DNA from: Escherichia coli | GTDB lineage: Bacteria > Pseudomonadota > Gammaproteobacteria > Enterobacterales > Enterobacteriaceae | Reading direction: 5' to 3' (one strand) | Length of the DNA stretch: 64,000 nucleotides | NCBI RefSeq assembly: GCF_003790525.1 | Contig: NZ_CP033635.1 | Shown: in pieces, positions 55,530-56,207 of the stretch | Position numbering within the stretch: position 1 is the stretch's first letter | How the letters are laid out: each line of letters begins with the position of its first letter | Notes under the pieces: model-generated | The model's database searches: none | Seen by the model: the letters and a program-made list of their open reading frames with translations, nothing else | Told to the model about the DNA's origin: nothing | Program-made: the position numbers and the translations under genes

Positions 55530-56207
55530 ATGAATACCAGAATTCTTTTTCCCCTGCTGTTCACTGTGGCATCATTCTCCGCCTCCGCCGGCAACTGGGC
55601 TGTCAAAAACGGCTGGTGTCAGACCATGACGGAAGATGGTCAGGCGCTGGTAATGCTGAAAAATGGCACGATTGGTATTACCGGCCTGATGCAGGGATGC
55701 CCGAATGGCGTACAGACGCTCCTGGGCAACCGTATCAGCATTAACGGTAACCTGATCCCCACATCACAAATGTGTAATCAGCAGACAGGATTCAGGGCTG
55801 TTGAGGTGGAAGTCGGACAGGCGCCGGAAATGGTCAAAAAAGCCGTTCACTCCATAGCAGAGCGTGATGTGTCCGTTTTACAGGCATTTGGTGTACGAAT
55901 GGAATTCACCCGCGGTGATATGCTGAAGGTCTGTCCGAAATTTGTCACATCACTTGCCGGTTTTTCCCCGAAACAGACGACCACTATTAATAAAGATTCC
56001 GTCCTGCAGGCTGCCCGGCAGGCATACGCCCGGGAATATGACGAGGAAATAACAGAAACCGCTGATTTTGGCTCTTACGAAGTAAAAGGCAATAAGGTTG
56101 AGTTTGAAGTGTTCAATCCTGAAGACCGTGCGTACGACAAAGTGACCGTCACGGTTGGTGCTGACGGTAATGCCACCGGCGCCAGCGTTGAATTTATCGG
56201 AAAATAG
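55530..56207 (+). CDS. Hypothetical secreted protein (225 aa)
   Basis: Signal peptide [20 protein letters not shown]; four Cys; family not recognised. Confidence 0.45.

Follow-up and report, generated by a model that had tools for sequence, protein, structure and literature searches.

An undescribed family of exported four-cysteine proteins encoded in CP4-type islands of Escherichia coli and other enterobacteria

The gene and its slot in the island

We analysed a gene located at 55530..56207 (+ strand) in a 64,000-nucleotide stretch of Escherichia coli DNA (contig NZ_CP033635.1), hereafter the window. The open reading frame (ORF) runs from an ATG at 55530 to a TAG at 56205-56207 (225 codons) and is preceded, 6 nt 5' of the ATG, by a Shine-Dalgarno-like AGAGG (55519..55523, + strand), read from the sequence. 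ORFs overlapping it in the other frames are each of 102 aa at most. RefSeq carries the coding sequence as WP_001097365.1, a "hypothetical protein", and the names within the 90% cluster of this accession (3,360 members) are all "hypothetical" or "uncharacterized". No paper was found in a literature search with the RefSeq and UniProt accessions of the gene, and the island papers searched contained nothing specific to it. The stretch 55530-56207 is a genuine, well-conserved gene for a small protein that leaves the cytoplasm.

A signal peptide is predicted at residues 1-20 (55530..55589, + strand) by rule-based analysis of n-, h- and c-regions combined with hydropathy. It consists of a basic n-region (R4), a core of 12 hydrophobic residues (I5-F16) and an AXA motif (A18-S19-A20|G21) at the predicted signal peptidase I (SPase I) cleavage site, ASA|GNW, the features of a Sec/SPase I substrate. 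Hydropathy exceeds 1.0 (19-residue windows) only for windows beginning at residues 1-7, residues 1-15 of the AlphaFold (AF2) model have a predicted local distance difference test score (pLDDT) below 50, and the signal-peptide character is retained, with varying letters, in 20 homologues. The lipobox pattern [LVI][ASTVI][GAS]C is not present in the window protein, whose first cysteine is residue 30. The most likely location of the mature protein (computed as 205 aa, 22.2 kDa and pI 5.2) is the periplasm.

The original prediction, made from the letters of the window, had placed a signal-peptide-bearing protein with four cysteines and no recognisable family at these coordinates, and it was borne out on each count. 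The ORF is where it was placed, the n-, h- and c-regions and the AXA site are canonical, and the cysteines (residues 30, 57, 82 and 135) are invariant across the family described below. Pfam (0 matches at E<=0.1), NCBIfam (nothing meaningful), PHROGs and PDB sequences (no match in either) and PADLOC were all empty for the window protein.

The gene lies between an island GTPase gene (54527..55411, + strand; 294 aa, MMR_HSR1/dynamin-like P-loop, Pfam PF01926, E=2.3e-14) and, as right-hand neighbour of the slot, a DUF932 gene (56466..57284, + strand; Pfam PF06067, E=6e-52). Both neighbours had been named beforehand and are present, with two corrections. The GTPase, then called YeeP-like, is just 32-36% identical to YeeP, YfjP and YkfA. 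Between the gene and the DUF932 gene, the first reading had missed a 3'-truncated DUF905 (YkfF-like) gene of 50 aa (56213..56365, + strand; Pfam PF06006, E=2.4e-14, profile positions 2-42 of 70) and an intrinsic terminator (56388..56417, + strand), a strong hairpin with a 12-bp stem, 7 GC pairs and a T-run. Islands hosting the gene are of the CP4-57/CP4-44 type, comprising a P4-type integrase, AlpA, a Gp2-like protein, the GTPase, DUF932, ArdB/KlcA, RadC, DUF987 and CbeA-CbtA; the gene belongs to the conserved backbone end of these CP4-type islands, whose biology is largely unknown.

The three K-12 islands have no homologue of the window protein, either by tblastn or with a hidden Markov model (HMM) of its N-terminal domain. 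In CP4-57 yfjP and yfjQ are adjacent, in CP4-6 ykfA and yafZ are adjacent, and in CP4-44 yeeP is followed by isrC, flu and yeeR; the original prediction was right that the slot is empty in CP4-57 and contains flu in CP4-44, and it is empty in CP4-6 too. The flu product, Antigen 43, resembles the window protein in being an envelope protein downstream of an island GTPase (YeeP, ~32% identical to the window GTPase), but its 1,039 aa form an autotransporter that brings its own beta-barrel, and the two proteins have nothing in common in size, fold or route of secretion. An occupant of the Antigen 43 kind does not fit the window protein, which has 225 aa, no autotransporter Pfam match and two small alpha/beta domains in its AF2 model. 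No Rfam element was found in 52000-61500, and therefore no IsrC-like small RNA such as that upstream of flu. CP4-57 and CP4-6 encode other small exported proteins, the inner-membrane lipoproteins YfjS/YafY, and YfjT/YkfB, which likewise lie between a YfjR-type HTH-WYL regulator and DUF905; the K-12 cassette comes after DUF932, whereas the window-type cassette comes before it. Kinship to YfjS (PF20494) or YfjT was considered and rejected (hhalign probability 3.7% and 0.5%, respectively; no Pfam match).

Family, predicted structure and distribution

Three alignments were built: A1, of the closer homologues of the window protein, with which related loci were also sought; A2, a wide alignment of 23 members; and A3, an N-domain alignment of 28 sequences. 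A profile search of 1.8 billion representative proteins yielded just 60 matches. The non-fragment relatives fall into four size classes: 230-237 aa (30-40% identity); 271-336 aa, in which the linker is expanded; 377-491 aa, distinguished by an extra C-terminal domain; and 138-181 aa, made up of the N domain alone. One further match, P0062 (7,945 aa, 53 matched stretches), is a T/D-rich repeat adhesin and was judged a compositional false positive. Across the family W23, C30, C57, C82 and C135 are invariant in the wide alignment, and otherwise few G/N positions are kept. The wide alignment contains no candidate catalytic residue, and Pfam-type searches gave no match to an enzyme family. The HMM derived from A3 picks up all family members (E<=1e-30) and has no other match in the window or in the K-12 loci. 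The window protein has the complete family pattern: an exported N-terminus, directly after it a W...C...C...C...C domain, and a gene that lies between those of the island GTPase and DUF905/DUF932. These proteins constitute an undescribed family, recognised by a ~120-residue N-terminal domain in which four cysteines never vary, nor does a single tryptophan at the very beginning of the mature chain; it plainly qualifies as a candidate for a Pfam/DUF entry of its own.

AlphaFold modelling of the full-length protein with A1 gave two domains (mean pLDDT 79.7, predicted template modelling score (pTM) 0.55), the low pTM fitting a flexible linker between them; the N domain modelled with A3 reached a mean pLDDT of 90.5 and a pTM of 0.85. 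The N-terminal four-cysteine domain, the family hallmark, comprises residues 21 to ~140 (55590..55949, + strand) and is predicted to form 9 beta strands and 2 helices. It is followed by a variable linker (residues 141-154; 55950..55991, + strand), indel-rich and poorly conserved in A1/A2, with pLDDT down to 67, which is also the site of expansion in the relatives of 271-491 aa. The C-terminal domain (residues 155-225; 55992..56207 including the stop codon, + strand) is modelled as a helix and a 4-stranded sheet in a cystatin/PepSY/NTF2-like fold.

Foldseek found no match below E=0.08 against the PDB. IalB is the best structural neighbour of the N domain, at a sequence identity of 8-9%, and the weaker neighbours of the C domain include colicin M immunity protein and VirB8/TraM-type proteins. 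With the IalB HMM (PF06776) there was no match at E<=1 in any of the 23 A2 members, nor at E<=0.1 in the Pfam search with the window protein; PepSY (PF03413) did not match the window protein and gave one sub-threshold match (E=0.03) among the 23 relatives; and the cystatin QxVxG motif was not found in residues 155-225. Because no member matches the IalB model and PepSY gives a single sub-threshold match, the IalB and PepSY/cystatin labels denote at most a resemblance of fold and not membership. IalB (PDB 3dtd, Bartonella henselae) differs from the window protein in being a single-domain protein of Alphaproteobacteria that is not island-borne, and the combination of four cysteines and N-terminal tryptophan is confined to the window protein's family. 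It is a Bartonella erythrocyte-invasion-associated protein reported at the inner membrane, and in Hyphomicrobiales its genes are often near trimeric autotransporters (bioRxiv 10.64898/2026.01.22.700529). The PepSY/cystatin/NTF2-like domains (YpeB 5boi, YpmB 2gu3, cystatins, colicin M immunity protein 2xgl) share with the C-terminal 70 residues an arrangement of 1-2 helices on a 4-stranded antiparallel sheet; they lie outside the cytoplasm and generally work through binding or inhibition. Unlike in the PepSY/cystatin systems, some members of the present family lack the C domain, and others have it in duplicate or supplemented.

Six long forms (P0090, P0091, P0092, P0095, P0105 and P0108) carry a lipobox, LTGC, LTAC or LSGC, at the position of the signal peptide. 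In five of these six the residue after the lipobox cysteine is Asp, and the conserved tryptophan follows 5-6 residues further on. Under the Lol-avoidance rule of Enterobacteriaceae, Asp at +2 holds a lipoprotein in the inner membrane. The working site of the family would therefore be the periplasm, with at least some members at the surface of the inner membrane. A surface location, as envisaged in the original prediction, is at odds with this retention signal in distant relatives, which places the family in the periplasm near the inner membrane. A third conserved domain with two cysteines ('NAFCTLDNGK...SHECK') occupies the C-terminal ~125 aa of P0080, P0088, P0090-P0092, P0095, P0105 and P0108; no Pfam or PDB entry matches this further undescribed periplasmic module.

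The family member sits between the GTPase and DUF905/DUF932 in all nine islands tabulated (L009, L011-L014, L019-L021 and L024). Proteins of 225 aa with ~60% identity to the window protein are encoded in Citrobacter freundii (L011), Klebsiella oxytoca (L012) and Atlantibacter (L013), and one with ~63% identity in Trabulsiella (L014); the others are a 336-aa paralogue in K. aerogenes (L009, 32%), P0070 in a draft genome assembly (L019, 234 aa, ~31%) and three proteins on metagenomic contigs, P0108 (L020, 473 aa, ~28%), P0080 (L021, 393 aa, ~29%) and P0111 (L024, 138 aa, ~20%). The GTPases adjoining family members are at least 48% identical to one another, 34-41% to YfjP/YkfA of K-12 and ~32% to YeeP. 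In distant islands the family member is 28-31% identical, versus 65-77% for DUF932 and 49-55% for the GTPase. On these comparisons the family member diverges faster than its flanks, a cassette-like pattern, and the gene is a recurrent, ancient occupant of the slot in an island sub-lineage, tied to its own GTPase subfamily. The view that the position downstream of the island GTPase is variable is upheld; the occupant, however, is not a one-off cargo but recurs in islands of several genera.

Two of these islands show further arrangements. The slot of L024 holds tandem paralogues, a 450-aa long form (5577-6929) and the 138-aa N-domain-only form (7576-7992), with a small membrane protein between them. 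In L020 a separate 116-aa ORF at 3978-4328 matches the full-length profile A1 and does not match A3.

Of 5,426 complete E. coli genomes, 1,841 carry the 678-bp gene at 95-100% identity (2,404 places, up to 5 per genome), and in 1,833 genomes its reading frame is intact. Carriers include O157:H7 86-24, uropathogenic E. coli (UPEC) 536, ABU 83972 and avian pathogenic E. coli (APEC) strains, and the gene is frequent among isolates of commensal, animal or environmental origin as well. With a presence in 34% of the complete genomes, O157:H7, 536 and ABU 83972 among them, it ranks among the most widespread wholly unannotated accessory genes of E. coli. Orthologues of ~60-65% identity are encoded in Klebsiella, Citrobacter, Enterobacter, Lelliottia, Atlantibacter and Trabulsiella. 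Among eight copies compared, the reading frame is unbroken in all, and the ratio of nonsynonymous to synonymous divergence (dN/dS, Nei-Gojobori) is 0.11-0.15, also where dS is unsaturated, as between Citrobacter and Trabulsiella (dS 0.36, dN/dS 0.13). The gene is under purifying selection. The dS of the family member is only ~0.07 among the C. freundii, K. oxytoca and Atlantibacter sp. copies (L011, L012 and L013), far under the chromosomal divergence expected of three genera, and therefore points to recent horizontal spread of the island module. Taken jointly, the statements on the identity, export and synteny of the gene are very probably right. They turn an anonymous "hypothetical protein" into a testable target, a member of an exported, disulfide-type, two-domain family with a fixed place beside its own GTPase subfamily.

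A phage origin of the gene was also considered and rejected. Searches by tblastn of 50,697 phage records, with the window protein and with its relative P0066, gave no match, and P0066 was treated as an exception; IMG/VR yielded one uncultivated virus genome (UViG), and no match for P0066. P0066 (32% identical) is encoded at 8001-8693 of a phage-like 49-kb Logan contig (L007) with ~30 small co-directional genes, almost no Pfam matches and an endolysin gene 3 kb off. It is the only context found without the GTPase/DUF932 module.

Candidate roles at the cell envelope

Our best guess, held tentatively, is a role of the exclusion or immunity type. After cleavage by SPase I, the 22-kDa protein would remain in the periplasm, stabilised by two disulfides made by DsbA, and would serve as a binding module without enzymatic activity on the outer face of the inner membrane or close to it, where its relatives would be tethered through a lipid anchor (Asp at +2) that precedes the conserved tryptophan by only 5-6 residues. 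Its role might be envelope-level protection or exclusion on behalf of the island-bearing cell: by binding, it could block an incoming agent (phage or conjugative DNA-entry machinery, a colicin, a type VI toxin) or a host component that the agent needs, with the variable C-terminal cystatin/PepSY-like domain or domains supplying specificity. We favour this role because small, exported or lipid-anchored, non-enzymatic, fast-diverging proteins of mobile elements are typically of that kind. Divergence together with modular architecture is the pattern typical of specificity-determining exclusion and immunity genes (TraS/Eex/TrbK, immunity proteins), and for the present family we infer a similar logic. 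An architecture ranging from 138 to 491 aa, tandem paralogues at one locus, folds of the binding or inhibitor type and the lack of a catalytic signature are all consistent with it. Lipoproteins for entry or superinfection exclusion and periplasmic immunity proteins of mobile elements (TrbK of RP4, Cor/Llp of phages and Cmi of colicin M) offer a functional analogy only: they too are small, encoded on mobile elements, exported as soluble or lipid-anchored proteins and non-enzymatic, and the family shares with them members far more divergent than the flanking backbone genes, but they have no sequence similarity to it, so that the analogy serves as a working model and not as a classification.

Several results weigh against an exclusion role. 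No homology to a characterised exclusion, immunity or inhibitor protein was found, and PADLOC-DB 2.0 gave 0 families at E<=1 for the window protein. Copies of the E. coli clade are 95-100% identical, evolve under purifying selection of the ordinary kind and show no sign of ongoing diversification. The islands encode no transfer apparatus of their own that would need exclusion. Finally, the strong linkage to one GTPase subfamily could mean a joint function with that GTPase.

Such a joint function would place the protein on the envelope side of a module shared with the neighbouring GTPase (plus an HTH-WYL regulator and DUF905 where present), for example a defence or sensing system not recognised so far, whose periplasmic sensor or effector cooperates with a cytoplasmic GTPase; we consider this unlikely. 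In each island examined, the family member adjoins a GTPase gene of the distinct clade and is read in the same direction, and the counts in E. coli are near 1:1, the gene occurring at 2,404 places in 1,841 genomes and the window GTPase allele at 2,502 places in 1,870 (DUF932 genes: 12,712 places). No terminator separates the GTPase gene from the exported-protein gene, whereas DUF905 is followed by a strong one; defence loci are often under the control of WYL regulators; and the GTPase has weak PADLOC matches to LeoBC and mad3. These matches are, however, of the generic P-loop kind, adjacency and co-occurrence may reflect common descent of one island lineage, the HTH-WYL regulator is dispensable (absent from the window, Citrobacter and K. 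oxytoca copies), and neither the GTPase nor the exported protein has a transmembrane segment that could couple the two compartments. That the four-cysteine protein and its dedicated GTPase subfamily, with optional HTH-WYL regulator and DUF905, form an unrecognised two-compartment module, possibly for exclusion of or defence against phage or conjugative DNA entry, is rather doubtful; if true, the module would mark a CP4-type island sub-lineage present in ~1/3 of E. coli genomes and spread between enterobacterial genera. We regard with similar doubt a modulator of a periplasmic hydrolase, whose PepSY/cystatin-like C domain would inhibit or stabilise a host protease or peptidoglycan hydrolase. 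PepSY propeptides and YpeB act on their partners in much this manner, and one relative has the sub-threshold PepSY match mentioned above. Against this, the window protein has neither a PF03413 match nor QxVxG in residues 155-225, the helix-on-sheet fold is very common and functionally promiscuous, and the conserved, defining part of the family is the N domain and not the C domain, N-domain-only members such as P0111 (138 aa) being known.

The original prediction had proposed an exported effector or surface factor, and a secreted or surface virulence factor, facing host cells and serving invasion or adhesion in the manner of IalB, is highly improbable on the present evidence. The signal peptide, the erythrocyte-invasion-associated IalB as best structural neighbour, an RGD tripeptide at residues 128-130 (55911-55919) and the presence of the gene in islands of O157:H7, UPEC 536 and APEC would speak for such a factor. 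Yet IalB itself is reported at the inner membrane (bioRxiv 10.64898/2026.01.22.700529). The RGD, kept in the E. coli/Klebsiella clade, is probably no integrin-binding motif, because distant relatives have GNF or ADF instead. The gene is as well common in commensal, animal and environmental isolates and occurs in Atlantibacter and Trabulsiella, and nothing in the protein suggests passage across the outer membrane: it has no beta-barrel, autotransporter features or lipid anchor, no C-terminal aromatic residue typical of outer-membrane proteins and no dedicated secretion system nearby, while its lipoprotein relatives bear the inner-membrane retention residue. A decaying or functionless ORF hitch-hiking in a degenerate island is hardly credible. 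Erosion is evident around the gene in the window, where the regulator is deleted, DUF905 is truncated and DUF5983/DUF4942 are frameshifted or partial in near-identical genomes, but the frame intact in 1,833 genomes, a dN/dS of ~0.13 between genera, cysteines and tryptophan invariant over ~80% sequence divergence and confident AF2 models effectively refute it.

The observation behind the original prediction is thus confirmed and its interpretation supported in part. The family is ordinary-looking yet genuinely uncharacterised and widespread, and nothing in the evidence so far is very surprising. Should no phenotype emerge, the protein would be one of many island-borne periplasmic proteins of unknown role.

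The window copy and the wider island

The order in 536 (pathogenicity island at selC/yicL) and O157:H7 is GTPase, HTH-WYL regulator, exported-protein gene, DUF905 (69-77 aa) and DUF932. In the window, ~970 bp with the HTH-WYL (YfjR/YafY-like) regulator of these two strains are replaced by a 59-bp junction at 55412..55470, as delimited by blastn: 54451-55411 and 55471-56357 of the window match 8010-8970 and 9944-10828 of L017. The stretches to compare with the junction are L017 8971-9943 and L016 10971-11943. The regulator, with HTH_11 and WYL domains, is annotated at L017 9173-9853 and L016 11173-11853. The Citrobacter and K. oxytoca copies also lack it. A DeoR/WYL-type regulator precedes the 336-aa paralogue in K. 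aerogenes (L009).

DUF905 starts 5 nt past the stop of the exported-protein gene, the spacing being identical in 536, where it is full-length (77 aa); the window lacks ~95 bp from the 3' end of DUF905 (L017 10829-10922). No + strand terminator was found in 54300-56600 besides that at 56388-56417, and no sigma-70-like promoter upstream of the gene on the + strand. As there is no internal terminator and a strong one after DUF905, the GTPase gene, the exported-protein gene and DUF905 are probably transcribed together here.

Just upstream of the GTPase gene lie two convergent genes with a 4-nt overlap, 52599-53474 (+ strand, 291 aa) and 53471-54424 (- strand, 317 aa), both annotated as hypothetical; neither protein has a Pfam or PADLOC match, and that of 53471-54424 is 75% identical to one in a metagenome-assembled genome locus (L010). 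On the other side, between DUF987 and a YeeU-type antitoxin, a 214-aa ORF (58640-59284) has no Pfam match; the module as found in 536 and O157 lacks it. It is labelled "antitoxin of toxin-antitoxin stability system" in one genome.

The wider window is a composite island beside ynjB (24045-27515, 30105-39405, 43214-45326 and 61686-62855). Its cargo comprises sitABCD, the aerobactin operon iucABCD-iutA with a major facilitator superfamily (MFS) transporter, insertion sequence (IS) remnants, and the gene of a trimeric autotransporter resembling YadA, which forms a pair with a sigma-factor-like HTH gene. A link between the exported-protein gene and this YadA-like adhesin, ~10 kb upstream, suggested by the neighbourhood of IalB genes in Hyphomicrobiales, was rejected: IS remnants lie between them, and other gene-bearing islands have no such adhesin. 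The iucD gene is intact in the window and frameshifted in the near-identical strain LR-31.
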